A stretch of DNA of 64,000 bases, taken from the NCBI RefSeq assembly GCF_003790525.1, contig NZ_CP033635.1. One strand, given 5' to 3'. This document shows positions 1 through 15,987 of the stretch, one piece after another (positions within the stretch are counted from its first letter, which is position 1; every line of letters starts with the position of its first letter). Source of the stretch: Escherichia coli. Lineage in GTDB: Bacteria > Pseudomonadota > Gammaproteobacteria > Enterobacterales > Enterobacteriaceae. Made by a program: the position numbers and the translations under genes. The notes under the pieces were generated by a model. It made no database searches and was not told the DNA's origin. It saw nothing but the letters and a program-made list of their open reading frames with translations.

Positions 1-216
1 ATGAGCACCGGCCGTAAGCACGTTATGTTATTGTTTCATTAGTAATAATCACTTAAATGTATCGATGAAACAGGTATGACTTAGCGGGAGTGATTGTTTC
101 TGAGTGAACAGAGACCACTTTAGCCTGATAAATGAAAAATGAGCGATTTTTGCAAGTTAGTTTTTCTATAGCCGAGTACGCTCAGCGCCTCGCTTGATTA
201 CAATGAGGTTGCTGCT

Positions 217-1161
217 ATGAGTCCTGATAATATCGGTTCGGCTGTCAATCGCTTCTCAGGTTGGCCATCTAATGATCCTCTAAAAACAGATAACGAATCA
301 ATGACATCACCCGTGGCTGTGCAGGTAATAAAGATGATTGCCGCCATCCTTGACCCATATCGGATAGTCGTTGGAATCGATACACTTTATACAACGCAGC
401 GCGAAACATTTACCTCAGAGAGTCAACAGCTCATTGAATCAGCATTGCAAACACTTCATGTGATAAATTTAAATAACCTGGAAACAAATCTCGATGAGGA
501 CGGTCACTATCTGGCTTTTGGATATAACGTTGACACTCCTGACAGAATAACCGTTTCTGCTTATAATGAAAAAAAGCCTGGCTGCTATGGCCAATGTCTT
601 TTAATACAGGATGACGAAACAGACTTATTTAACCTGATAAAAGTTAAAATTTTTGAAGCCAGGCATAATTATGTCGCTCAATTGATGAGAGATCCGGAAT
701 TTATGTTCAAATTTAGTTATAGCGCTCAACAAAATAGATTAGAACCTCATCTTCTGGTTCCCACTTATTTCCCTCTAAAAACAAACGAACCGGTTACGCA
801 AGAGGATGTACTGTTACTTTATCGTTTCTTTAAAATGGATGGTGATTTTAATATATTAACATCAGATGAATACATGAGTATCATGACACCTCTGATGAAG
901 TGTGAGCGTAGCATCCACGACCACAACAGGTATGTGACGGGCAAAGATACCCTTCTTCTGGACTATCCTCCTTCTGGTAACCAGATATATTTCCATATTT
1001 TTCCTGACGAATCAGCAACACTAGTCCTTTATTTTTCAAACAATGACATTGAATGTTTCGTCTTTGAAAGAGATATTCCGAGCCAGTATCGCTTTTTCAA
1101 AATGTTTACCAATCTGGCACTGGTTATTGATCAGTTAACTGATGCCAATCAAATACTTTAA
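217..1161 (+). CDS. hypothetical protein, 314 aa, low-GC, no recognisable family
   Basis: ORF with AGG-type RBS about 9 nt upstream of the ATG. N-terminus is Ser/Thr/Asn/Pro-rich with no hydrophobic signal peptide. Internal repeated motif YRFFKM appears twice. GC clearly below the core genes in the window. Confidence 0.55.
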   Translation: MSPDNIGSAVNRFSGWPSNDPLKTDNESMTSPVAVQVIKMIAAILDPYRIVVGIDTLYTTQRETFTSESQQLIESALQTLHVINLNNLETNLDEDGHYLAFGYNVDTPDRITVSAYNEKKPGCYGQCLLIQDDETDLFNLIKVKIFEARHNYVAQLMRDPEFMFKFSYSAQQNRLEPHLLVPTYFPLKTNEPVTQEDVLLLYRFFKMDGDFNILTSDEYMSIMTPLMKCERSIHDHNRYVTGKDTLLLDYPPSGNQIYFHIFPDESATLVLYFSNNDIECFVFERDIPSQYRFFKMFTNLALVIDQLTDANQIL

Positions 1162-1241
1162 TTTTTATATATTCCCTGTGGCAAATATTGCTAAACAATG
1201 CCTGGGGATTAATTTTTATTACTCACGGAAAGATTTAAATA

Positions 1242-1664
1242 ATGATCCCATCTCAAATCTCTTTCAACACCCTTCCTGTCAATGCAACATACGCTTCAGA
1301 GACAACAGTTGACACACAAAAATTCTCTGACATCCTCTACTCAGCGGGGTGTTCCCTAAAGGATCTGGCTTATCTGAGCAGATGTCTGGCATCAATACAT
1401 CCGACTATCGCCAAAAACATTTATGAAACAGAAAATCTCAGCGATCAAAAATTACTACATATTGATTGCCGTAGTACAAATGAAATCAAGATAAATATCT
1501 TTTTTGGTCAACAACGAGAAGGATTAATTGAAATTAATTCTGACACTGTCATTTTTTCGATATTGTCTTCATTAATTGACTCCGCCATTTCTAAATTTCA
1601 ACACCAAATCCCCGTTAACGGTTCAGTTAATCGTGAACTATTGTATGAGGATTATACTGATTAA
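1242..1664 (+). CDS. hypothetical small acidic protein, 140 aa, partner of upstream ORF
   Basis: ORF starts 80 bp downstream of the 314-aa ORF on the same strand. By my count about 20 Asp/Glu against about 10 Lys/Arg. No transmembrane segment or signal peptide seen. Confidence 0.45.
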   Translation: MIPSQISFNTLPVNATYASETTVDTQKFSDILYSAGCSLKDLAYLSRCLASIHPTIAKNIYETENLSDQKLLHIDCRSTNEIKINIFFGQQREGLIEINSDTVIFSILSSLIDSAISKFQHQIPVNGSVNRELLYEDYTD

Positions 1665-2210
1665 ATCCACCCAGTCGCGAAAATGGCCTGCGTTATTGCC
1701 AGAGGTAATAAAACCTTTGATTAACGTTACTCATACTGGTAGCACCTTCATGTACCTCTCTTTTTTACGAAAAATCAAAAGAGCTAACTAAGGTCATAAT
1801 TCGCATGAATCATTAACCATTTGTTATTTTCAACATTATTTTTACATTAAGCAGAGATGAATTGCAGTGAAATTCGACTTAAATTTTATGAAATGCATTT
1901 ACTCATGGCTAAACCCATATCACTAAAATGCAAATTAGAAGTAGATCACAAATACCTCAATACACCAAATCAAGTTAATTTTAAAAATTTAACATTCATG
2001 ACATTAGTTGACATAACACACTGAATTAACATGAGAATTTAACAACATACTTTAAACAATCATTTCCCGAAAGACATTTTGAAAATAGATCAATTGCAAC
2101 ATTACGGTCAGATAAAGACACTCCTGTGATATTAAACCTGTGCCGTTATGAACGGCCATAAATACGACGTGTGTAACTTATTTTACTCTCTGTCTTACAA
2201 AGGATTACCC
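1665..2210. promoter_or_regulatory. AT-rich non-coding leader / promoter region upstream of the glutamate mutase operon
   Basis: About 540 bp without a convincing ORF, visibly far more AT-rich than the flanking genes, immediately upstream of the first gene of a six-gene coupled operon. Confidence 0.4.
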
Positions 2211-2660
2211 ATGAAGAAAGCAACACTTGTGATTGGCGTTATTGGCGCGGACTGCCATGCAGTAGGCAATAAAGTTCTGGACCGCGTTTTTAGCAACCAT
2301 GGCTTCAGAGTCATTAATCTGGGCGTAATGGTCAGCCAGGACGAATATATTGATGCGGCCATTGAAACTGGCGCTGACGCGATTGTCGTCTCCTCTATCT
2401 ATGGGCATGGCGATATCGACTGTCTGGGCATGCGCGAACGCTGCATCGAGCGTGGACTGGGGGACATCCTGCTCTATGTGGGCGGTAACCTGGTGGTCGG
2501 AAAACATGACTTCGCTGACGTGGAAACCAAATTCAAAGAGATGGGATTTGATCGCGTCTTTGCCCCAAGTCATGACTTAGAAGATGTTTGTCAGCTGATG
2601 GCCCACGATATCAACCAACGTCATGACGTTGATACTCGTATTCTTGAAGAGGCAATCTGA
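2211..2660 (+). CDS. glutamate mutase S (sigma) subunit, B12-binding component of methylaspartate mutase
   Basis: Translation from [21 protein letters not shown] matches the cobalamin-binding small subunit, including the DxHxxG motif (DCHAVG). Start chosen at the internal ATG preceded by AAGGA; the track ORF starts 21 codons earlier. Confidence 0.85.
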
Positions 2661-4048
2661 TGCAAATCGTCTCTGTCGATATTGGATCGACGTGGACCAA
2701 AGCAGCCCTCTTCGCCCGGGAGGGGGACGCGTTAACGTTGGTTAACCACGTACTGACCCCAACCACCACCCATCATCTGGCGAAGGGGTTTTTCTCCAGC
2801 CTGAACCTGGTGTTAAACGTAGATAATGCCCTCCCCCTGTTTAACAACGGTGAGGTTGCATTGAAGTATTCCTCCTCTGCCAAAGGTGGGCTGGCGGTTG
2901 CCGCAATGGGGTTGGTGCCTTCTATCACCCTGGAAACCGCGAAAGTAACCGCTCACTCTGCGGGGGCTAAAATTGCGCAATATTACTCCTACAAGCTGAA
3001 CCGCCGTGATATCCAGGCACTGGAAGAAACGCAGCCCGATATTCTCTTGTTCACCGGCGGCACCGACGGCGGAGAAGAAAGCTACGGCCTGAATAACGCC
3101 CGTGTGCTGGCAGAATCCAAACTCGACTGCGCCATTATTTATGCCGGAAACCGGGATATTCAGGACGAGGTGCAGGAGATCCTAGGGCATAAAGACCTGA
3201 CCATCGTCGACAACGTTCTGCCCGATCTTGACCATCCGAACCCTTTAGCTGCACGCCAGGCTATCTGCGACATATTCCTTAAACGCATCGTTAAAGGGAA
3301 AGGGCTGGATGTCGTTGTTGATAAAACAGGCGAAGAACCAATGCCGACACCGTGGACAGTCTTTGAACTGGTTAAGGCAATCAGTAATGTCGATCACAGC
3401 TGGAAAGAGTTCATGCTGATCGACATGGGTGGCGCAACCACCGATGTCTATTCCGCCTGTGCCAACACGCTCTCGCCCGACACCGTTTTACACGGCGTAC
3501 CGGAACCCTTCGTGAAACGGACGGTGGAAGGCGATCTGGGAATGCGCGTCTCGGCAATGGTGGTTGGTGAAAGTGCGAAAGAGTTAGTCAATGTGAATTT
3601 TGCTCAGCAACCCGCACAGCTGGACGCTTTTTATCATTACCTCCGTCATCTAGTCGCTCATCCCGACTACTTACCCGCGAATGCAGAAGAAAAATATTTC
3701 GATACCGTCCTGGCCGGACTGTGTGTGGGTTATGCCACCGAAAGACATGCGGGCACCAAAAAAGAGGTCTGCACCTGTGTCGGCAATGTCGATTTACAGA
3801 TGGGACGTGACCTGACAACCGTGCGTAAAGTCGTCGGAACCGGCGGATGGCTCTCGCGTGCCAGTCAGTTCGATATGCATCACTGGTTGAAATACCGCGA
3901 GTTAAACGACGACGGTAAACGCATTCTCTTACCGACCGAATTTGAATATTACCGCGATTCCCGGGGGCTATTACCACTGCTGGCAAACGTCGCCAGAGTC
4001 GATCCGCTGGCCGCCGCGCGCACCAGTATTCAATGCTTAACCCTATAA
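2660..4048 (+). CDS. glutamate mutase L component (MutL/GlmL-type accessory protein)
   Basis: 462-aa ORF whose ATG overlaps the upstream stop (TGATG), sitting between the S and E subunit genes as in clostridial glutamate mutase operons. Confidence 0.75.
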   Translation: MQIVSVDIGSTWTKAALFAREGDALTLVNHVLTPTTTHHLAKGFFSSLNLVLNVDNALPLFNNGEVALKYSSSAKGGLAVAAMGLVPSITLETAKVTAHSAGAKIAQYYSYKLNRRDIQALEETQPDILLFTGGTDGGEESYGLNNARVLAESKLDCAIIYAGNRDIQDEVQEILGHKDLTIVDNVLPDLDHPNPLAARQAICDIFLKRIVKGKGLDVVVDKTGEEPMPTPWTVFELVKAISNVDHSWKEFMLIDMGGATTDVYSACANTLSPDTVLHGVPEPFVKRTVEGDLGMRVSAMVVGESAKELVNVNFAQQPAQLDAFYHYLRHLVAHPDYLPANAEEKYFDTVLAGLCVGYATERHAGTKKEVCTCVGNVDLQMGRDLTTVRKVVGTGGWLSRASQFDMHHWLKYRELNDDGKRILLPTEFEYYRDSRGLLPLLANVARVDPLAAARTSIQCLTL

Positions 4049-4066
4049 CAATTAAGGCTGCAATCA

Positions 4067-5512
4067 ATGGAACTTCGAAATAAGAAATTAACCCATGACG
4101 AATTCATGACCGAGCGGCAACAGGTACTGAAAACCTGGGAAACCGGCAAGGATGTTGAAAACTTTGAAGATGGCGTTAAATACCAACAAACCATTCCTGA
4201 GCATAAACGCTTCTCTCTTGCCCTGCTGAAAGCAGACAAGGAAGGTAAAACTCTTAGCCAACCGCGCGCAGGCGTGGCGCTGATGGACGAACACATCGAA
4301 CTACTGAAAACACTACAAGAAGAATGCGATCTGCTGCCGAGCACCATCGACGCATATACCCGTCTGAATCGGTACGAAGAAGCGGCTGTAGGGATTAAAA
4401 AATCCATCGAAGCCGGAACCTCTAAACTGAACGGTTTACCGGTCGTTAACCACGGCGTCGCAGCTTGCCGTCGCCTCACCGAAACTTTGCAAAAACCGCT
4501 ACAGATCCGCCACGGCACGCCAGATGCGCGTCTGCTGGCTGAAATCTCGATGGCCAGCGGCTTTACCAGTTATGAAGGCGGCGGCATTTCCTACAATATT
4601 CCGTATGCCAAGCGCGTAACGCTGGAAAAATCGATCCGCGACTGGCAGTACTGCGACCGTTTAATGGGGATGTATGAAGAACACGGGATCCGCATCAACC
4701 GCGAACCGTTTGGCCCACTAACGGGTACCCTGATCCCGCCGTTTATCTCGCACTCTATCGCGATAATCGAAGGCTTGCTGGCGCTGGAACAGGGTGTGAA
4801 ATCTATCACCGTTGGTTATGGACAGGTCGGCAGCCTGACGCAGGATGTTGCGGCGATCCAGTCTCTGCGTGAACTTGCACACGAATATTTTCAGAGCTAT
4901 GGCTATACCGACTATGAATTAAGTACCGTGTTTCACCAGTGGATGGGCGGCTTTCCGGAAGACGAATCGAAAGCGTTCGCTATTATCTCCTGGGGCGCAG
5001 CCGTCGCGGGGATGTCTGGTGCCACCAAAGTCATCACCAAAAGTCCGCACGAAGCCTGGGGTATCCCGACTGCCGCTGCCAACATTCAGGGGCTGAAAGC
5101 CTCCCGCCAGATGCTCAACATGGTCAACGAGCAGAAATTCCCGCCGTGCCCTGCGGTTGAACTGGAAATTGAACTGATTAAGAGCGAGGTTCGCGCGGTA
5201 CTGAATAAAGTGTTCGAACTGGGTAATGGTGATATTGCGCGCGGTACGGTGCTGGCATTTGAAGCGGGCGTACTGGATGTGCCGTTTGCGCCAGCCGCCT
5301 GCAACGCGGGCAAAATTCTTCCGGTCCGTGACAACACCGGCGCGATACGCGTACTGGAAGCCGGAGCCGTTCCATTGCCAAAAGATATTCTCGACCTCCA
5401 CCACGATTACGTTGCGGAACGCGCACGCTTTGAAGGACGCCAACCGACATTCCAGATGGTTGTAGATGACATCAATGCTGTATCCCACAGTAAATTAATA
5501 GGAAGACCATAA
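4067..5512 (+). CDS. glutamate mutase E (epsilon) catalytic subunit
   Basis: 481-aa translation (MELRNKKLTHDEF ... FQMVVDDINAVSHSKLIGRP) colinear with clostridial GlmE/MutE across its full length. Confidence 0.9.
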   Translation: MELRNKKLTHDEFMTERQQVLKTWETGKDVENFEDGVKYQQTIPEHKRFSLALLKADKEGKTLSQPRAGVALMDEHIELLKTLQEECDLLPSTIDAYTRLNRYEEAAVGIKKSIEAGTSKLNGLPVVNHGVAACRRLTETLQKPLQIRHGTPDARLLAEISMASGFTSYEGGGISYNIPYAKRVTLEKSIRDWQYCDRLMGMYEEHGIRINREPFGPLTGTLIPPFISHSIAIIEGLLALEQGVKSITVGYGQVGSLTQDVAAIQSLRELAHEYFQSYGYTDYELSTVFHQWMGGFPEDESKAFAIISWGAAVAGMSGATKVITKSPHEAWGIPTAAANIQGLKASRQMLNMVNEQKFPPCPAVELEIELIKSEVRAVLNKVFELGNGDIARGTVLAFEAGVLDVPFAPAACNAGKILPVRDNTGAIRVLEAGAVPLPKDILDLHHDYVAERARFEGRQPTFQMVVDDINAVSHSKLIGRP

Positions 5513-6753
5513 TGAAAATAAAACAGGCTCTGTTCACCGCTGGCTACTCCTCATTCTATTTCGATGACCAGCAGGCGATAAAAAACGGAGCGGGTCATGA
5601 CGGCTTTTTTTATACCGGGGAGCCGGTAACACAGGGGTTTAACGCCGTTCGTCAGGCCGGGGAGTGCGTATCGGTACAGTTGATTCTGGAAAACGGCGCG
5701 GTCGCCGTAGGTGACTGTGCTGCCGTACAGTATTCCGGGGCAGGTGGTCGCGATCCACTGTTCCTCGCTGAGCACTTTATTCCGTTCCTCAACGACCATA
5801 TCAAGCCATTACTGGTAGGCCGCGATGTGGATGCTTTCCTGCCGAATGCCCGTTTCTTCGACAAATTGCGTATTGACGGCAACTTGCTGCATACCGCCGT
5901 GCGCTACGGATTATCACAGGCGCTGCTTGATGCTACCGCGCTGGCAACCGGCCGTCTGAAAACTGAAGTGGTCTGTGATGAATGGCAGTTGCCACGCGTG
6001 GCGGAATCCATTCCATTATTTGGTCAGAGCGGGGACGATCGATATATCGCCGTCGATAAGATGATCCTTAAGGGCATCGACGTGCTGCCCCATGCACTGA
6101 TTAATAACGTCGAAGAGAAACTGGGCTTTAAAGGTGAAAAACTGCGCGAATATGTCCGCTGGCTGTCGGATCGTATTCTGAGCAAGCGCACCAGCGCACG
6201 CTACCACCCTACCCTGCACATCGATGTATACGGCACTATCGGTCTGATCTTCGATATGGATCCGCTTCGCTGTGCGCAATACATCGCCAGCCTGGAAAAA
6301 GAAGCGCAAGGCCTGCCGCTCTACATTGAAGGGCCGGTCGATGCCGGTAACAAGCCCGATCAAATTCGCCTGCTGACCGCGATTACCAAAGAGCTGACGC
6401 GCCTCGGTTCCGGCGTGAAAATTGTGGCCGATGAATGGTGTAACACCTACCAGGATATTGTTGATTTCACTGATGCCGCCAGTTGCCACATGGTGCAAAT
6501 CAAAACCCCGGATCTGGGCAGTATTCACAACATCGTCGATGCAGTTCTTTATTGCAACAGCCACAGCATGGAAGCGTACCAGGGCGGCACCTGCAATGAA
6601 ACTGATGTCAGTGCCCGCACCTGTGTCCACGTCGCCCTTGCCGCTCGCCCCATGCGTATGCTGGTAAAACCAGGGATGGGCTTTGACGAAGGCCTCGATA
6701 TCGTCTTCAACGAAATGAATCGTACTATCGCGCTGTTGCAGGCTAAGGATTAA
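5512..6753 (+). CDS. 3-methylaspartate ammonia-lyase
   Basis: 413-aa translation colinear with clostridial methylaspartase (conserved blocks AVQYSGAGGRDPLF, HALINNVEEKLG, HMVQIKTPDLG, CNETD). Start overlaps the glmE stop. Confidence 0.92.
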   Translation: MKIKQALFTAGYSSFYFDDQQAIKNGAGHDGFFYTGEPVTQGFNAVRQAGECVSVQLILENGAVAVGDCAAVQYSGAGGRDPLFLAEHFIPFLNDHIKPLLVGRDVDAFLPNARFFDKLRIDGNLLHTAVRYGLSQALLDATALATGRLKTEVVCDEWQLPRVAESIPLFGQSGDDRYIAVDKMILKGIDVLPHALINNVEEKLGFKGEKLREYVRWLSDRILSKRTSARYHPTLHIDVYGTIGLIFDMDPLRCAQYIASLEKEAQGLPLYIEGPVDAGNKPDQIRLLTAITKELTRLGSGVKIVADEWCNTYQDIVDFTDAASCHMVQIKTPDLGSIHNIVDAVLYCNSHSMEAYQGGTCNETDVSARTCVHVALAARPMRMLVKPGMGFDEGLDIVFNEMNRTIALLQAKD

Positions 6754-6756
6754 CAA

Positions 6757-8127
6757 ATGGCTCGTTCTTTTAAAGTCTTATCGCCAACGGCAATCCTCGG
6801 GTATGGATTCCCGGAAGAGAGCTTCCGCAAAGCGATGGCAGAATCGCCCGATCTGATCGCCGTTGATGCAGGCTCTTCCGATCCTGGCCCCCACTACCTC
6901 GGGGCGGGCAAACCGTTTACCGATCGCGCAGGGGTCAAGCGTGATTTGCGCTATATGATCACCGCAGGCGTGCAAAATAATATACCGGTGGTGATCGGAA
7001 CGGCCGGCGGTTCTGGTGCCGCTCCACACCTGGAGTGGTGCCGAGAAATAATTCATGAGATTGCCCGGGAAGAGCAACTCGCGTTCTCGATGGCGCTGAT
7101 CCCGGCAGACGTTGACAAAGCCATCGTCCACCAGGCGCTGGATAACGGCAAAATCACGGCGCTGGATTTTGTCCCGCCGTTAACCCACGACGCGATTGAC
7201 GAAAGTACGTATATCGTCGCGCAAATGGGCATCGAACCCTTCCAGCGGGCGCTGAAAGAAGGCGCGCAAGTGGTGCTGGGCGGGCGCGCTTACGACCCGG
7301 CCTGCTTTGCTGCGCTCCCGATCATGCAAGGCTTTGATGAAGGTCTGGCGCTGCATTGTGGGAAAATCCTTGAATGCGCGGCAATCGCCGCAACGCCCGG
7401 CTCAGGCTCTGACTGTGCGATGGGCATCATTGATGACAACGGCTTTACGCTGAAGACATTTAATCCGAAGCGTAAATTTACCGAAACGTCAGCGGCTGCA
7501 CACACACTGTATGAGAAATCCGATCCCTACTTCCTGCCTGGACCTGGCGGCGTGTTGAACCTGAAAGGCTGCACATTTAAAGCGGTCAATGACGGCGAAG
7601 TGTACGTCAGCGGTTCTAAGCATGAAGAAACGCCGTATGCCCTGAAACTGGAAGGTGCGCGACGGGTGGGCTTCCGCTGTCTGACCATCGCAGGAACGCG
7701 CGACCCGATCATGATCGCCGGGATCGATAAAATCATCGATGAAGTCAAAACCAGCGTTTCACGTAACCTGTCGCTCGACGATGACAGCATTCGCATCAAT
7801 TTCCACCTGTACGGCAAAAACGGGGTGATGGGCGACCATGAACCGATGCAAACTGCCGGGCATGAGCTGGGGATTGTCCTTGATGTAGTTGCACCGACCC
7901 AGGAAATTGCCAATAGCGTTTGCTCGCTGGTGCGCTCTACCATGCTGCACTACGGCTATGAAAACCGCATCGCTACCGCAGGCAATCTGGCGTTCCCGTT
8001 CTCCCCTTCTGATATCCAGGGCGGGCCGGTATACGAATTTTCCATATATCACCTGATTGAAGCCAACGACGCTCTGCGTTTTGATTTCCATATTGAACAG
8101 GTGACGCCAGAAGGAGTTCAGGCATGA
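6757..8127 (+). CDS. uncharacterised 456-aa protein, possibly DUF1446/AtuA-like
   Basis: ORF begins 4 nt after the methylaspartase stop in the same operon. Family assignment is from memory and tentative; no catalytic motif recognised. Confidence 0.6.
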   Translation: MARSFKVLSPTAILGYGFPEESFRKAMAESPDLIAVDAGSSDPGPHYLGAGKPFTDRAGVKRDLRYMITAGVQNNIPVVIGTAGGSGAAPHLEWCREIIHEIAREEQLAFSMALIPADVDKAIVHQALDNGKITALDFVPPLTHDAIDESTYIVAQMGIEPFQRALKEGAQVVLGGRAYDPACFAALPIMQGFDEGLALHCGKILECAAIAATPGSGSDCAMGIIDDNGFTLKTFNPKRKFTETSAAAHTLYEKSDPYFLPGPGGVLNLKGCTFKAVNDGEVYVSGSKHEETPYALKLEGARRVGFRCLTIAGTRDPIMIAGIDKIIDEVKTSVSRNLSLDDDSIRINFHLYGKNGVMGDHEPMQTAGHELGIVLDVVAPTQEIANSVCSLVRSTMLHYGYENRIATAGNLAFPFSPSDIQGGPVYEFSIYHLIEANDALRFDFHIEQVTPEGVQA

Positions 8128-8441
8128 AACAGTCAATTGTCTCACTGGCGCAAGTCATTCGTTCGAAAAATGCCGGACCTTACGAACTGGTTTTAGATAT
8201 TTTATTTAAAACGAAAGAAAACTATGAGCGAGTTAAATCATCAGGGCAATTAACCCCAGAACTGATTGCGCGCTTATATCATGTTGAACCTGACTTTATT
8301 CACCGTATTGTCTGGTTTGATCCTTCTAACGCAGTAAAAATCGTCATGCCACGAGATATTATCTCCGGGAATGTAGGTGACAATGATGTCTATGGTGCAC
8401 AGCAACATGCACCTTTATTAAATATGAGTTTCGATTTGTAA
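8124..8441 (+). CDS. uncharacterised 105-aa protein, possibly DUF4387-like partner of the upstream ORF
   Basis: Start overlaps the upstream stop by 4 nt (ATGA). Family assignment tentative. Confidence 0.55.
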   Translation: MKQSIVSLAQVIRSKNAGPYELVLDILFKTKENYERVKSSGQLTPELIARLYHVEPDFIHRIVWFDPSNAVKIVMPRDIISGNVGDNDVYGAQQHAPLLNMSFDL

Positions 8442-8601
8442 AAATCCGAATACTTTTAGCCAACTGACATCCCGTCACTTATTGCAGTTCAACACTTCAG
8501 CTATTTGTAAGGTTGTAATAGCAGGTAGATGCCTGAATCTCTATTCAGGCTTCTACTTCTCCTGATTCTGATTTATCGCCGTGCACCTGATGGAGGAAAA
8601 A

Positions 8602-9882
8602 ATGAAGAAAATAAGTTTAACCACGATGATTCTTTTGGCGCTGGTACTTGGAATGATTATCGGCGTAGTGCTCAATAACACTGCTTCACCGGAAACCGCA
8701 AAACTCTATGCGCAAGAAATATCGATATTCACGACGATTTTCTTACGACTGATAAAAATGATTATCGCTCCGTTAGTGGTCTCTACCCTGGTGGTAGGTA
8801 TAGCTAAAATGGGAGATGCCAAAGCCCTTGGTCGTATTTTTTCTAAAACACTCTTTTTATTTATTTGCGCCTCATTGCTGTCAATCGCCTTAGGCTTGAT
8901 AACAGTAAATTTCTTCATGCCAGGCACAGGAATTAATTTTGTTGCACACGGAGCCGAAACCACCGGAGTGGTCGCGTCAGAACCCTTTACGCTAAAAGTA
9001 TTTATTTCGCATGCTTTCCCCACCAGCATTGTCGATGCCATGGCGCACAATGAAATTTTGCAAATCGTGGTGTTCTCAATTTTCCTCGGCTGTAGCCTGA
9101 CGGCGATTGGTGAGAAAGGCAGCGCCATCGTTCACGCCTTAGATTCGCTGGCACATGCCATGTTAAAGCTCACTGGCTACGTCATGCTCTTCGCTCCCCT
9201 GACCGTATTCGCCGCTATTTCAGCATTGATTGCTGAACGAGGACTGGCAGTTATGGTGAGCGCCGGGATCTTTATGGGTGAATTTTATTTCACCATGTTG
9301 TTACTTTGGGTGCTGCTTATCGGTCTGGCCATCGTTTATGTCGGCCCCTGCATCAGACGCCTGACCCGTGCCCTTTCGGAACCCGCCCTGCTGGCATTTA
9401 CCACATCCAGTTCTGAAGCGGCTTTTCCGGGAACGCTTGAAAAACTGGAGCAATTTGGCGTTTCCCCCAAAATTGCCAGCTTTGTCTTACCCATTGGCTA
9501 CTCATTTAATCTCGTTGGATCAATGGCCTACTGCTCCTTCGCCACAGTTTTCATCGCCCAGGCCTGCAATATCCATTTATCCATCGGTGAGCAAATCACC
9601 ATGCTGTTGATCCTGATGTTGACCTCGAAAGGAATGGCTGGCGTACCACGCGCCTCAATGGTGGTTATCGCCGCCACGCTCAACCAGTTCAATATTCCGG
9701 AAGCGGGGCTGATCTTGCTGATGGGCGTTGATCCGTTCCTTGATATGGGGCGTTCCGCGACAAACGTCATGAGCAACGCAATGGGCGCTGCGATGGTGAG
9801 TCGGTGGGAAGGCGAACATTTCGGCGAGGGCTGTCGGGGTAAAGCATTAAAACCCAATGAATCGAACGTTGCTCTGCCCTGA
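8602..9882 (+). CDS. dicarboxylate/amino acid:cation symporter (GltP/DctA family)
   Basis: Multi-pass hydrophobic protein with GltP-like blocks. Start set at the ATG (MKKISL) preceded by GGAGG; the track ORF begins at an upstream GTG. Confidence 0.8.
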   Translation: MKKISLTTMILLALVLGMIIGVVLNNTASPETAKLYAQEISIFTTIFLRLIKMIIAPLVVSTLVVGIAKMGDAKALGRIFSKTLFLFICASLLSIALGLITVNFFMPGTGINFVAHGAETTGVVASEPFTLKVFISHAFPTSIVDAMAHNEILQIVVFSIFLGCSLTAIGEKGSAIVHALDSLAHAMLKLTGYVMLFAPLTVFAAISALIAERGLAVMVSAGIFMGEFYFTMLLLWVLLIGLAIVYVGPCIRRLTRALSEPALLAFTTSSSEAAFPGTLEKLEQFGVSPKIASFVLPIGYSFNLVGSMAYCSFATVFIAQACNIHLSIGEQITMLLILMLTSKGMAGVPRASMVVIAATLNQFNIPEAGLILLMGVDPFLDMGRSATNVMSNAMGAAMVSRWEGEHFGEGCRGKALKPNESNVALP

Positions 9883-9989
9883 GGGGGATCTTAAGCAATC
9901 AGAAGCCAATGACTACGCATTTTTATAAGCCGGATCATGAAGTTAGACGGCAATTAAGTAAAACTAACGTTTAAGGTGAAAAGTGAAAT

Positions 9990-11642
9990 ATGTCCAAACC
10001 ATTTATCTGGCAAGAACCGTTTCTACAAAATAAAGACGGTACAGAATATACATTAATTAGCGATCAACATATTACAGTAACGGAATTAGACGGCGAAGAA
10101 GTGATAAAAATCGCTCCTGAAGCATTAACGCTGCTTGCCCGGCAGGCATTTTATGAAGCCTCTTTTTTCTTACGTTCCGCTCATTTGCAACAGGTCGCCA
10201 GCATTCTTAACGATCCGCACGCCAGTAGTAATGATAAATACGTTGCGTTGCAGTTATTACGTAATGCTGAAGTCTCAGCAAAAGGGGTATTACCCAACTG
10301 TCAGGATACCGGCACCGCAACTATTGTTGCCAGTAAAGGGCAACAGATATGGACCGGAGGTAACGACGCTGAAGCCTTAAGCAAAGGCATTTACACCACT
10401 TTTCAGGAAAATAATCTGCGCTTTTCACAAAATGCGCCACTGGATATGTTTACCGAAGTCAATACGCAAACCAATCTCCCGGCGCAGATTGATATCAGCG
10501 CCGTCGCTGGTGATGAGTACCATTTTCTCTGTATTAATAAAGGGGGCGGCTCTGCCAATAAAGCCGCGCTTTATCAGGAAACCAAATCCCTATTGCAACC
10601 AGAAAAACTGACCGCATTTTTAATCGAAAAAATGAAATCGCTGGGCACCGCTGCCTGCCCGCCTTACCACATCGCCTTTGTCGTCGGAGGGCTTTCAGCC
10701 GATCAAACCTTAAAAGTTGCCAAGCTGGCCTCAACGAAATATTACGACAATTTGCCCACCAGCGGAAACGAGCAAGGACAAGCATTCCGTGATATTGAGC
10801 TGGAAAAAGTATTGCTCGAGGCCAGTCAGCAATTTGGTATTGGTGCGCAATTTGGGGGTAAATATTTCGCTCATGATATTCGCGTCATTCGTCTGCCGCG
10901 TCACGGTGGCTCTTGCCCGATAGCTATGGCGCTCTCCTGTTCTGCGGATCGCAATATCAAAGCAAAAATTAACAAGCACGGTATCTGGCTGGAAAAACTC
11001 GAACACAATCCGGGGCAATATATTCCAGCCTCACTGCGGGAAGAAAATCACGCGCAACATGTACAGCTGGATCTAAACCGTCCGTTGCGTGACGTGATGC
11101 AGGATCTCGCCAGATTACCGGTAGGCACCCGCGTGTCGTTAAGTGGTCCCATCGTAGTGGCGCGCGATATCGCCCACGCCAAAATAAAAGCGCGGCTGGA
11201 TAGCGGCGAACCGATGCCGGATTACCTGAAGCATCATATTGTCTATTACGCTGGCCCGGCGAAAACACCGGAGAACATGGCCTGCGGTTCACTGGGTCCA
11301 ACCACGGGCGGTCGAATGGACGGTTATGTCGATACCTTCCAGGCGGCTGGCGGCAGTCTGGTGATGTTATCGAAAGGTAACCGCAGCCAGCAGGTCACCG
11401 ATGCCTGTCACAAACATGGCGGCTTCAATCTGGGGAGTATTGGCGGTGCAGCTGCGTTACTGGCGCAAGAATATGTCAAAAGTCTGCGTTGCCTGGAATA
11501 CCCGGAGCTGGGTATGGAAGCGGTGTGGATGATGGAAGTGGAAAATTTACCCGCATTCATCCTGGTAGATGATAAAGGCAATAATTTCTTTAGTCAGTTT
11601 GAGCAGCAACACCGCTGCGCCAGTTGCCCTGCGGGACATTAA
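9990..11642 (+). CDS. class I (Fe-S) fumarate hydratase paralog, FumA/FumB-like; candidate mesaconase
   Basis: 550-aa translation colinear with E. coli FumA (e.g. [35 protein letters not shown]). The mesaconase role is inferred from operon context only. Confidence 0.85.
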
Positions 11643-11651
11643 GGAAAATGA

Positions 11652-12254
11652 ATGGAAGCGCGAATTTCAACTGAACGGCATGTGCAGCGCCAGCAGAAAT
11701 TGAAGGAACAGGTCGATACGCGCGTCGCGGCGGCGATAGAGAAAAAAGGGATTTTGATTGTTTTCACCGGCAATGGCAAAGGGAAATCCACTGCCGCGTT
11801 TGGTACTGTGACGCGCGCGGTGGGTCATGGCAAAACGGTGGGGGTTGCGCAGTACATCAAGGGGCAATGGGACAACGGCGAATACAACCTTCTCCAGCCG
11901 CTGGGGGTTGAGTTTCATATTATGGGAACCGGTTTTACCTGGGAGACACAGAACCGGCAAGCGGATATCGACGCGGCGAAAGAGGTCTGGTCGGAAAGCA
12001 AACGGATGCTGGCTGACAAGCGTTACGACTTAGTGGTGCTTGATGAGCTGACCTATATGCTGGCTTACCATTATCTGGATACCGAAGAAGTGATCGCTTC
12101 TCTGCAAAACCGCCCGGCACAACAAAGTGTCATTGTCACCGGACGCGGTTGCCACAGTCAGATATTAAAAATGGCGGATACGGTCAGCGAAATCCGCCCC
12201 GTCAAACATGCTTTTGATAACGGCATTCAGGCCCAGCCGGGTATCGACTGGTAA
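11652..12254 (+). CDS. corrinoid adenosyltransferase paralog (BtuR/CobA family)
   Basis: 200-aa translation closely colinear with E. coli BtuR, including the P-loop-like block IVFTGNGKGKSTAAFG. Confidence 0.85.
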   Translation: MEARISTERHVQRQQKLKEQVDTRVAAAIEKKGILIVFTGNGKGKSTAAFGTVTRAVGHGKTVGVAQYIKGQWDNGEYNLLQPLGVEFHIMGTGFTWETQNRQADIDAAKEVWSESKRMLADKRYDLVVLDELTYMLAYHYLDTEEVIASLQNRPAQQSVIVTGRGCHSQILKMADTVSEIRPVKHAFDNGIQAQPGIDW

Positions 12255-12287
12255 TAACTGCGCCTGGCATCCCGCCAGGCGCAGGTT

Positions 12288-13193
12288 TTACATCTCCTGC
12301 GGTACGACCGATTTCGCCAGCAACCATTCACGAAATTGCTGCAAGTGCGGTGAGTCAGACTTCTCTTCCTGCCACGTCATAATAAAACGATTACCGGTAC
12401 GAATAGGCACATCACAGGGAATCACCATATCGCCACTATCCAAATCATGTTGAATAGCGAACCGTGGTAACAGCGCCACGCCGAGATTAGAGCGCACGGC
12501 GGCAATCAGCATTGAAAGCAAATCGAAACGTGGTCCGTTATTGACCAGCGGACTGCTAACGCCAGATAAAGCAAACCACTCTTCCCAGCCAGTAATACGG
12601 GTGCTTTGATGCAGAAGTGGTAACTCAGTAAGCAGTTCTGCCACTGACAGTTTTTGATCGGACATTGCAAGCAAACTGCCGCTGCATACCGGCAAAATCT
12701 CCTCATCAAAGAGATATTCTACTTCCGCCCAGGGCGCGCAAAAATTTTCGCGCATAATGACAGCATCGTACTCCCGATTAAGAAAATCGCCGTTATTAGC
12801 TAAAGAATGAATATTAACAATAATATCGGGATGTAACTTTGTGAATTCATGTAAATTTGGGATTAACCAGTGGGTACTAAACGTAGGATTCACGGCAAGT
12901 TCAATAACCTGAACCGTAGGCTGCCAGGTCATAATGGTATTGGTATCGCGTTCCAGCTTATTTAATGTTTCTTTTACTATCCCCAGGTAATACTTCCCTG
13001 CATCATTAAGAAAAATGCGTTTTTTAGAGTGTGAAAATAACGGAGTATGTAAAAATTCCTCCAGCGCACTTACTTGTCTGAATACTGCACTTTGGGTTAA
13101 CGCTAACTCCTCTGCCGCTCTGGTATAACTTTCATGACGTGCGACGACCTCAAAAGTCACCAGCAGTTCCGTTTTAGGTATTTTTCCTCGCAT
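12288..13193 (-). CDS. LysR-family transcriptional regulator
   Basis: 301-aa ORF with an N-terminal helix-turn-helix (TRAAEELALTQSAVFRQVSALEE) and a LysR substrate-binding domain. Convergent with the upstream operon. Confidence 0.85.
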   Translation of the reverse strand: MRGKIPKTELLVTFEVVARHESYTRAAEELALTQSAVFRQVSALEEFLHTPLFSHSKKRIFLNDAGKYYLGIVKETLNKLERDTNTIMTWQPTVQVIELAVNPTFSTHWLIPNLHEFTKLHPDIIVNIHSLANNGDFLNREYDAVIMRENFCAPWAEVEYLFDEEILPVCSGSLLAMSDQKLSVAELLTELPLLHQSTRITGWEEWFALSGVSSPLVNNGPRFDLLSMLIAAVRSNLGVALLPRFAIQHDLDSGDMVIPCDVPIRTGNRFIMTWQEEKSDSPHLQQFREWLLAKSVVPQEM

Positions 13194-13770
13194 AATGCCT
13201 TCCCTTAAAAATAGTTGAAACTATCAAAAAACCATTACTTATTGCTAAGTAATGGCAACCAAAGCAGCAATCAATATTTTATAAAAATCATGTTCGATAT
13301 TTATAACCTGGTAAGCCTGGCGTGACAATTGTCTTAATCAGATAATAATAATCCGAAAAGCACAGCACCTTTCGAATTATCAGGAATTACATTAAGTGAA
13401 AATTATTAAATTGATATCATTTATCATATCTGTGGATATTATGATAAACAATCAACATAGATTTTATTTTTGATTTATAGCATATCCCTCTAAGAATTTT
13501 TGCGATGCTTCAATATCCGGGGTAAAGACCCGATCCTGACTGACAAATGGCACGACTTGACGATAAGCGGTGAACATCGCTTTTGTTGATTTACTTAACG
13601 CTACGGTCAAACGCTGGGAAGCCAGTGCATCAGGTAACGATTCGAAATTCGCCGTCGTTCTTATTCGTGGCTTGCGGTCGGTCGCGGCAATCCACAGTGG
13701 CTGTGGTCATGCAGTCAAGCCTGCAGTCAGATTCCGACCGTGGTTAACGTTTAAGGCATAAAAAAGGCCA

Positions 13771-13858
13771 TCATATGATGGCCAACCATGTCGAAACCGA
13801 CAGCCCTTCGCCATTCCTGTAGAGGGAAGCGGCGAGGGCTATTTCTTATTACAGATAT
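13771..13858 (-). ncRNA. sdhX: sucD 3'-UTR small RNA (SdhX/RybD-type) ending in an intrinsic terminator
   Basis: Region immediately after the sucD stop on the minus strand ends in the perfect palindrome GGCCATCATATGATGGCC followed by a T-run. Identity as SdhX rests on position and recollection; 5' end approximate. Confidence 0.45.
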
Positions 13859-14728
13859 TTATTTCAGAACAGTTTTCAGTGCTTCACCGATATCCGCCAG
13901 GCTGCGAACGGTTTTCACGCCTGCGGCTTCCAGAGCAGCAAATTTCTCATCCGCAGTCCCTTTCCCACCGGCAATGATGGCACCCGCGTGGCCCATACGT
14001 TTGCCTTTCGGCGCAGTCACACCAGCGATGTAACCCACAACAGGCTTGGTAACGTGCTCTTTGATGTACGCAGCCGCTTCTTCTTCAGCGCTACCGCCGA
14101 TCTCACCGATCATCACGATCGCTTCGGTCTGCGGATCTTTTTCGAACATTTCGAGGATGTCGATAAAGTTAGAGCCAGGGATCGGGTCGCCGCCGATACC
14201 AACACAGGTCGACTGACCGAAACCGTAATCCGTGGTCTGTTTAACCGCTTCATAGGTCAGTGTACCGGAACGGGAAACGATACCCACTTTACCCGGTTTG
14301 TGAATGTGACCAGGCTGGATACCGATTTTGCATTCACCCGGAGTGATAACGCCCGGGCAGTTCGGGCCGATCATGCGAACGCCCGCTTCATCCAGTTTCA
14401 CCTTCACGGTCAGCATATCCAGCGTCGGGATGCCTTCAGTGATGGTGATAATCAGTTTGATGCCTGCATCAATAGCTTCCAGAATGGAGTCTTTGCAGAA
14501 CGGTGCTGGTACGTAGATAACAGAAGCGGTAGCGCCAGTAGCAGCAACAGCTTCACGCACGGTGTTGAACACCGGCAGGCCGAGGTGGGTGGTGCCGCCT
14601 TTACCTGGGGTTACGCCGCCAACCATTTTAGTGCCGTATGCAATAGCCTGTTCTGAGTGGAAAGTCCCCTGGCTACCGGTAAAGCCCTGGCAGATAACCT
14701 TGGTGTTTTTATCAATTAAAATGGACAT
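13859..14728 (-). CDS. sucD: succinyl-CoA synthetase alpha subunit
   Basis: 289-aa translation recognised as SucD. Confidence 0.97.
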
Positions 14729-15894: not shown

Positions 15895-15934
15895 GTGTTC
15901 TGTCCATCCTTCAGTAATCGTTATCTTTTAAACC

Positions 15935-15965
15935 GTAGACCGACACCCTATCCACGTCGGTCTAC
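15935..15965 (-). repeat. intergenic hairpin between sucB and sucC
   Basis: Perfect 10-bp inverted repeat GTAGACCGAC ... GTCGGTCTAC with an 11-nt loop. Confidence 0.5.
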
Positions 15966-15987
15966 AGTGCAGGTGAAACTTAAACTA

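Follow-up and report, generated by a model that had tools for sequence, protein, structure and literature searches.

An O157:H7-type methylaspartate-pathway gene cluster among the alternative contents of the cydA-sucD interval of Escherichia coli

A gene cluster for the methylaspartate pathway of glutamate breakdown was described in Escherichia coli by Kronen and Berg in 2015, who named its fumarase paralog FumD and gave frequencies for the cluster of 26.5% in E. coli and 90.6% among O157:H7 strains (PMC4682846). Figure 5 of that paper draws FumD, a GltP-like transporter, CobA, a LysR-type transcriptional regulator (LTTR) and a DUF1446 gene. According to the authors it was unclear what becomes of citramalate; they left the DUF1446/DUF4387 pair unexplained and found no condition with gene expression. 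Here we analyze a stretch of 64,000 nucleotides from E. coli (NCBI RefSeq assembly GCF_003790525.1, contig NZ_CP033635.1; hereafter the window), in which a cluster of this kind occupies the DNA between cydA and sucD. The O157:H7 strain Sakai has the same 12 genes in the same slot (ECs_0755-ECs_0767), in the same order and orientation and with no structural difference; its catabolic proteins are 98-100% identical to those of the window, which carries an allele of a non-O157 lineage.

We give a probability of about 85% to the reading that positions -213 to 13751 (negative positions precede the first letter of the window) are an O157:H7-type methylaspartate-pathway cluster, that the cluster is one of several cargoes of the cydA-sucD interval, and that it encodes a complete route for glutamate. 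The cluster is already known: the O157:H7 reference genome contains it, and the 2015 paper covered both its genes and how widely they occur. Our additions are small: a slot with multiple contents, a copy in the same slot of Pseudescherichia vulneris, a copy on an IncFIB plasmid of Salmonella, and a fast-evolving gene pair found only in Escherichia.

Gene identities were assigned with the curated cut-offs of NCBIfam. The small, B12-binding subunit (sigma) of glutamate mutase is encoded by glmS (2211-2660, plus strand), which scores 254 bits against NF002612 (cut-off 110) and 246.6 bits against TIGR01501 (cut-off 135.8); both family models match over their full length, and the translation contains the DxHxxG motif (ADCHAVG). 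It is followed on the plus strand by glmL (2660-4048), for the glutamate mutase accessory protein of the MutL family (NF040745, 511.6 bits, cut-off 475; TIGR01319, 886 bits), and by glmE (4067-5512), for the large catalytic subunit (epsilon; TIGR01503, 865 bits, cut-off 390), whose product aligns over its full length with the solved epsilon chains 1CCW/1I9C/6H9E (E 1e-189). The next plus-strand gene, mal (5512-6753), encodes a 3-methylaspartate ammonia-lyase (MAL; TIGR01502, 543.9 bits, cut-off 286) that matches 1KKO/1KKR with 898 bits and 1KCZ with 502 bits, in full-length alignments. A class I fumarase paralog, fumD (9990-11642, plus strand), scores 1284.7 bits against NF011921 (cut-off 1060), a model separate from those for FumA and FumB, and its product is 98.5% identical to Sakai ECs_0757. 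Mesaconase activity (mesaconate to (S)-citramalate) was measured for the O157:H7 FumD (PMC4682846), and the window allele is, judged by its sequence, a mesaconase.

The genes that would support the route are also present. A dicarboxylate/amino acid:cation symporter (DAACS/SDF) is encoded at 8602-9882 on the plus strand; it scores 312 bits against the DctA model (cut-off 513) and 302 bits against the GltP model (cut-off 638), and because both scores lie below the cut-off we place it in the DAACS family as an equivalog of neither. The same symporter is labeled GltP in Figure 5 of PMC4682846. It is presumably a glutamate importer, and a C4/C5-dicarboxylate substrate is also possible. Downstream of fumD is a cob(I)yrinic acid a,c-diamide adenosyltransferase of the CobO/CobA type (cobO, 11652-12254, plus strand; NF004637, 295.6 bits, cut-off 185; TIGR00708, 246.6 bits, cut-off 167.75). 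From glmS to cobO the genes lie on one strand and are tightly packed or overlapping, and we predict that they form an operon. A GC-rich hairpin with an 11-bp stem that includes 9 GC pairs (12258-12284) sits between cobO and the convergent lysR, where it probably ends the operon as a bidirectional terminator. The regulator gene (12288-13193, minus strand) is GcvA-like but scores 221.8 bits with the GcvA subfamily model, below the cut-off of 288; it also adjoins the cluster in P. vulneris, Yersinia and Salmonella, and it presumably regulates the operon. We found no cobalamin riboswitch or other Rfam element at E <= 0.1 in window positions 1-14000.

The step from citramalate to pyruvate and acetate is assigned to two genes between mal and the symporter. 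The first, cmlA (6757-8127, plus strand; 456 amino acids, DUF1446/AtuA family), is predicted to encode the large subunit of a citramalate lyase that is independent of coenzyme A (CoA), and the second, cmlB (8124-8441, plus strand; 105 amino acids, DUF4387), which overlaps cmlA by 4 nt, its small subunit. In a profile search of the PDB, CmlA matches chain A of 9ERQ/9EVF, titled “Citramalate lyase, subunit A (cmlA)”, over 456 of 456 residues (E 1.6e-292), and CmlB matches chain B, titled “Citramalate lyase, subunit B (cmlB)”, over 104 of 105 residues (E 5e-57). An AlphaFold2 model of CmlA, built from 107 family members (predicted local distance difference test, pLDDT, 96.4), superimposes on 9evf_A with a TM of 0.97 at 92% identity, and no other solved structure is close to it. 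The entry 9EVF, released on 2025-10-08, is a “Citramalate lyase - ADP - pyruvate complex”. The Raoultella planticola cmlAB genes split citramalate into pyruvate and acetate in vivo (preprint 10.64898/2026.01.16.699985). By sequence comparison and structure prediction the E. coli pair is CmlA and CmlB, orthologs of the solved citramalate lyase.

Because cmlA and cmlB supply citramalate cleavage, the predicted pathway is complete from glutamate to pyruvate, acetate and ammonia. The enzymes that define a methylaspartate pathway all have predicted representatives here: glutamate mutase S and E, methylaspartate ammonia-lyase, a mesaconase, and an enzyme for citramalate cleavage, the last non-homologous to its clostridial counterpart. 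A preliminary description of this DNA had called the module complete, which agrees with this result, although it had overlooked cmlA and cmlB, the genes through which the route closes. The genes that it listed (glutamate mutase S/L/E, methylaspartase, a transporter, a fumarase paralog, an adenosyltransferase and a LysR regulator) are all borne out by the formal family searches; four open reading frames were missed, namely cmlA, cmlB and two hypothetical genes at 217-1161 and 1242-1664.

As a newly proposed missing lyase, the DUF1446/DUF4387 pair would not be a new idea; the PDB search showed that the function was already established. Neither CmlA nor CmlB matches an NCBIfam model, and the Pfam match of CmlA to AtuA (PF07287) is weak (68 bits, E 7e-19). 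An earlier proposal held AtuA to be a lyase acting on a tertiary beta-hydroxy acid, with acetate as the released product. We rejected an AtuA identity for CmlA on account of the 68-bit match and because no atu cluster surrounds the gene. Current annotations of these genes vary: cmlA is called “3-methylaspartate ammonia-lyase” (as a second copy in Sakai) or “acyclic terpene utilization AtuA family protein”, cmlB is called “acyl-CoA synthetase” (Sakai) or “DUF4387 domain-containing protein”, and the Sakai fumD is named fumA. The RefSeq and GenBank names for cmlA, cmlB and fumD are outdated or wrong, and the AtuA name is misleading. These product names hide the completeness of the pathway, which reannotation of CmlA and CmlB would fix. 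With the CmlAB structures closing the enzymatic gap, the question shifts from a missing enzyme to when E. coli expresses the operon.

Some further observations concern cmlAB. The cmlB gene has a GC content of 38.7% (33% at third codon positions, GC3) versus 49-55% in the other operon genes, yet its protein is 100% conserved between strain XDL, which is identical to the window, and Sakai. A protein of about 310 amino acids, which has the Walker A motif GAEGAGKST and belongs to no Pfam family, is encoded 3′ of cmlB in a Lentisphaerae genome (L006 15269-16201) and in another distant genome (L010 11677-12618); the two copies are 62% identical to each other, and a search of the E. coli window found no counterpart. 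This P-loop protein could be an accessory factor of CmlAB, since the solved complex holds ADP. In Accumulibacter (L008 / L009 10001-11679) a cmlAB pair, with a CmlA 68% identical to that of E. coli, has an RND efflux operon and a GH77 gene as neighbors, and glm and mal genes are absent from the surrounding 10 kb. CmlAB is thus not tied exclusively to glutamate fermentation.

We propose the following route. Glutamate would be taken up by the symporter, and L-glutamate would be converted to (2S,3S)-3-methylaspartate by adenosylcobalamin-dependent GlmS/GlmE with the accessory protein GlmL, as suggested by equivalog-level family assignments. MAL, also assigned at the equivalog level, would convert methylaspartate to mesaconate and ammonia. 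FumD would then hydrate mesaconate to (S)-citramalate, as the biochemistry of the O157:H7 enzyme indicates, and CmlAB would cleave citramalate to pyruvate and acetate with no CoA, as suggested by the structure and in vivo use of its 92%-identical ortholog. CobO is predicted to make adenosylcobalamin. E. coli does not synthesize B12 de novo and relies on exogenous corrinoids, and because of this CobO would work on salvaged corrinoid. The convergent LysR gene would presumably control the operon in response to an inducer.

The genes have been maintained in both lineages that we compared. All eleven genes in the comparison of XDL with Sakai (nine operon genes, lysR, and sucD as a control) are intact in both genomes. 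GlmE differs at 1 of 481 amino acids at a nucleotide divergence of 1.7% (about 25 nucleotide changes), MAL at 1 of 413 at 1.4% divergence, and the symporter at 1 of 426 at 0.9% divergence; CmlB and CobO have no amino acid changes. Substitutions are overwhelmingly synonymous and the cluster genes are under purifying selection, which argues against a decaying relic.

To determine occurrence, we searched window positions 1-14000 against 5426 complete E. coli genomes by megablast and scored the segment as present where at least 80% of the query was matched. It is present in 1117 genomes (20.6%) at 98-100% identity, and the remaining genomes match solely at 13752-14000, which is the sucD end. The window is 100% identical to strain XDL (NZ_CP043033), in whose locus (L001) position 12001 is window position 1, and about 98.2-98.3% identical at the nucleotide level to copies of the STEC type (E. 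coli that produce Shiga toxin). Pairwise blastn against K-12 delimits the XDL-specific DNA as L001 11788-25751 (window -213 to 13751; 13,964 bp), located between cydA and sucD. The K-12 counterpart is an interval of 5,929 bp that holds mngR-mngA-mngB. Homology with K-12 stops at L001 11787 (window -213) on the left, about 213 bp before the window start. On the right, both the K-12 alignment and megablast matches starting at 13752 place the junction with core DNA at 13751/13752. Beyond it are sucD (13859-14728, minus strand) and then sucC, sucB and sucA.

These alignments settle several points of the preliminary description. The segment is accessory DNA and not conserved core, it adjoins sucD, and K-12 does have mngR-mngA-mngB in that interval. 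It had been viewed as an insertion ahead of mngR; instead, mngRAB is replaced (13,964 bp for 5,929 bp). The segment does extend past the window start as described, though only by the short distance given above, and the right limit of 13770 was placed too far. The sucD terminator hairpin (13766-13783, minus strand) falls at that edge and is core DNA common to K-12, outside the segment. The statement that the DNA is of lower GC holds for the segment as a whole (47.9% vs 52.1% in the rest of the window) and for its two arms, but not for the operon. By part, GC is 36.4% at 1-2210, 51.3% from glmS to cobO, and 42.7% at 12255-13752, and the GC3 of the operon genes is 49-61%. The lower overall value arises because both arms are AT-rich, and the operon is host-like. 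The E. coli segment is therefore a mosaic of a host-like operon, a 36%-GC left arm, and a right part at 43% GC that holds lysR and the remnant of a gene.

The cydA-sucD slot has at least four alternative contents. Alleles that we found are mngRAB (K-12), mngRAB with IS1, and a single 371-amino acid gene annotated as a tetratricopeptide repeat (TPR) protein (L004 12747-13862, strain FDAARGOS_1296), whose left flank is shared with the glm allele up to window position 52. In another allele, which has no glm genes, a 64%-identical copy of a 314-amino acid gene from the left arm accompanies a 258-amino acid gene with no Pfam family (L015 11786-12562). The glm-cml cluster of XDL and Sakai is a further allele. 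Loci with mngRAB were found in 3884 of the 5426 genomes; mngRAB is absent from the slot in XDL, 2010C-3347 and O157:H7 Sakai, and a search of the whole window found no copy elsewhere. The absence of mngRAB at the slot in glm-allele strains would represent a metabolic trade-off and could serve as a lineage marker.

Relatives of the cluster occur in other genera. P. vulneris has glmSLE-mal-cmlAB-symporter-fumD-lysR in this cydA-sucD slot as well, and lacks cobO and the left arm with its two hypothetical genes; homology with the E. coli segment resumes at L001 14202 (window 2202). Yersinia enterocolitica has the cluster at another genome site. Salmonella Macclesfield carries it on a conjugative IncFIB megaplasmid of 416 kb (NZ_CP022118, 230969-242113; L019), with transposase and TnpB genes and an HdeA/HdeB chaperone gene on its flanks. 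Of the five matches labeled as plasmids, this is the only genuine plasmid copy; three are mislabeled E. coli chromosomes or fragments. In the Salmonella versions (L019, L012) the symporter gene and fumD are separated by an inserted glsA (glutaminase A). Enterobacterales keep the gene order glmSLE-mal-cmlAB, as do a Lentisphaerae genome and a further, distant one.

The segment is not a classical integrative island. We found no tRNA gene in window positions 1-14000 and no flanking direct repeats at the two junctions, and no integrase or transposase is annotated in the segment of XDL, 2010C-3347 or Sakai. Of the traits typical of islands it shows variable presence (20.6%), and its composition is atypical in the arms only. 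Most likely the segment was exchanged through homologous recombination in the conserved flanks that carry the cyd and suc genes, which is the most economical mechanism. An alternative to horizontal acquisition, which we consider possible but somewhat doubtful, is that the cluster is an older occupant of the slot in the Escherichia/Pseudescherichia lineage that was later replaced by mngRAB or other cassettes. The exact match of the slot in P. vulneris, the host-like GC and GC3 of the operon, the lack of mobility genes, tRNA and flanking repeats, and the number of alleles at the slot are all consistent with such a history. Against it, DNA identity between E. coli and P. vulneris is 72-75% in the cluster but 81-85% in the flanks, the cluster occurs in unrelated contexts (Yersinia and the conjugative megaplasmid of Salmonella), and the E. 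coli version has additional arms and cobO.

Several points weigh against the reading of the segment as an encoded, complete glutamate route. One is the dependence of E. coli on exogenous corrinoids. In O157:H7 ATCC 700728, neither anaerobic growth that depended on glutamate nor activity of methylaspartate ammonia-lyase was found under any condition tried (PMC4682846), and the function of the cluster in E. coli is genetic potential only. The assignment of the E. coli proteins as CmlAB draws on PDB entry titles and on a preprint that used the enzyme of Raoultella, and we infer both the substrate of the symporter and the inducer of the LysR protein. As to mutual exclusivity of mngRAB and the glm cluster, the counts (3884 and 1117 of 5426) are compatible with it and go no further. 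The preliminary description was right that the operon is coherent; to call it self-contained was an overstatement, in view of the need for corrinoid salvage and the published failure to find a condition of expression (PMC4682846).

On a more speculative level, the cluster may provide, in the gut only, a route from glutamate to pyruvate and acetate that runs on the corrinoids of other organisms in about one fifth of E. coli (including enterohemorrhagic E. coli (EHEC) O157:H7 and the bloodstream isolate XDL), traded for mannosylglycerate use, with the slot an old recombination site of multiple contents in which the glm cluster is the older occupant. We put this forward tentatively and think it has less than an even chance of being right. 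If true, carriers would have an advantage in a gut niche at the cost of mannosylglycerate use.

The module may instead serve mainly exogenous C5-dicarboxylates (methylaspartate, mesaconate and citramalate) or nitrogen release, with a symporter that imports dicarboxylates; we consider this unlikely. The symporter does score slightly higher with the DctA model than with the GltP model while being an equivalog of neither, cmlAB stands without glm and mal in Accumulibacter, and FumD and CmlAB alone would be enough for mesaconate use, as exploited in preprint 10.64898/2026.01.16.699985. However, this would not account well for glmS, glmL, glmE and mal being joined with a dedicated adenosyltransferase in one tight predicted operon under purifying selection, nor for the conservation of the six-gene block glmSLE-mal-cmlAB across phyla, and the insertion of a glutaminase gene in the versions from Salmonella suggests that glutamine and glutamate feed the pathway. 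Weaker still, and in our view improbable, is the notion of silent, decaying cargo in a host without B12 synthesis: the lack of activity or growth phenotype in ATCC 700728, the lack of a riboswitch or other Rfam element and the gene remnant beside lysR are in line with it, but the genes are intact in XDL and Sakai with almost exclusively synonymous change, and the segment keeps its own adenosyltransferase and regulator and is retained at high identity in all 1117 genomes.

The arms of the segment hold DNA outside the catabolic operon. The left arm (1-2210) is AT-rich, with two hypothetical genes and a 546-bp AT-rich region upstream of glmS. The first gene (217-1161, plus strand) encodes 314 amino acids and the second (1242-1664, plus strand), which travels with it, encodes 140; searches of NCBIfam, Pfam, PHROG and PADLOC gave no significant family match for either protein. 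The 314-amino acid protein has just 5 clusters among 5.8 billion proteins, all of them Escherichia-like. It is 92.4% identical to its Sakai counterpart (96.4% at the nucleotide level) and 64% identical (78% at the nucleotide level) to the copy in the slot without glm genes (L015). By these comparisons the gene evolves fast, and because its homolog occupies the same cydA-sucD slot without glm genes, it is a separate module. The 140-amino acid gene is annotated as hypothetical in XDL, 2010C-3347 and Sakai (ECs_0766).

The right arm (13194-13751) contains the promoter region of lysR, which is AT-rich, and, at about 13464-13750 on the minus strand, the remnant of a gene broken by a stop codon. The remnant lies between lysR and the core junction and is weakly similar to the C-terminus of histidine or aromatic-amino-acid ammonia-lyases (E 3e-4), and blastn and tblastx against the other slot alleles (L002, L004, L012-L015) gave no match. 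Two numbers (RS16940 and RS16945) are left out of the RefSeq locus tags at this position.

The flanking core DNA also varies. In genomes with the glm or TPR allele, the cydAB regulatory region (L001 11486-11787, which lies about 515 to 214 bp ahead of the window start) has a diverged haplotype: its identity to K-12 is 100% over the first 74 nt upstream of cydA, then 58%, 90% and 70% per block of roughly 100 nt, and then random. Cytochrome bd-I might be regulated differently depending on the slot allele. On the other side, in the intergenic region between sucB (odhB) and sucC (window about 15895-15987), K-12 is longer by roughly 180 bp; the alignment breaks at L001 27943/27958 versus L002 10191/10387, which may reflect the presence or absence of a repetitive extragenic element.

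Compared with known systems, the predicted E. coli enzymes combine shared and unrelated parts. The R. planticola CmlAB (9ERQ/9EVF) is encoded by two genes with overlapping stop and start, the same arrangement as in E. coli. The AtuA protein of Pseudomonas, which functions in acyclic terpene utilization, belongs to the same Pfam family (PF07287) as CmlA, with only a weak match; it has an atu gene context and another substrate, whereas the neighbors of CmlA are glm, mal and fumD. Some AtuA-family members of about 610-620 amino acids may be fusions of DUF1446 and DUF4387, judged by length alone.

The methylaspartate pathway of Clostridium tetanomorphum and C. cochlearium has the same reaction sequence as the route predicted here, with homologous GlmS, GlmL, GlmE and MAL. 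The two differ at citramalate, which is cleaved by a citrate-lyase-like complex in clostridia and would be cleaved by the unrelated CmlAB in E. coli. The E. coli cluster has in addition its own adenosyltransferase, symporter and LysR regulator. Unlike the hosts of the clostridial pathway, E. coli does not ferment pyruvate onward to butyrate. The clostridial mesaconase has two subunits, whereas that of the E. coli cluster is the single-chain class I fumarase FumD (PMC4682846). In the haloarchaeal methylaspartate cycle mesaconate is activated to mesaconyl-CoA and metabolized through CoA esters, in contrast to the hydration and cleavage of free acids predicted for FumD and CmlAB.

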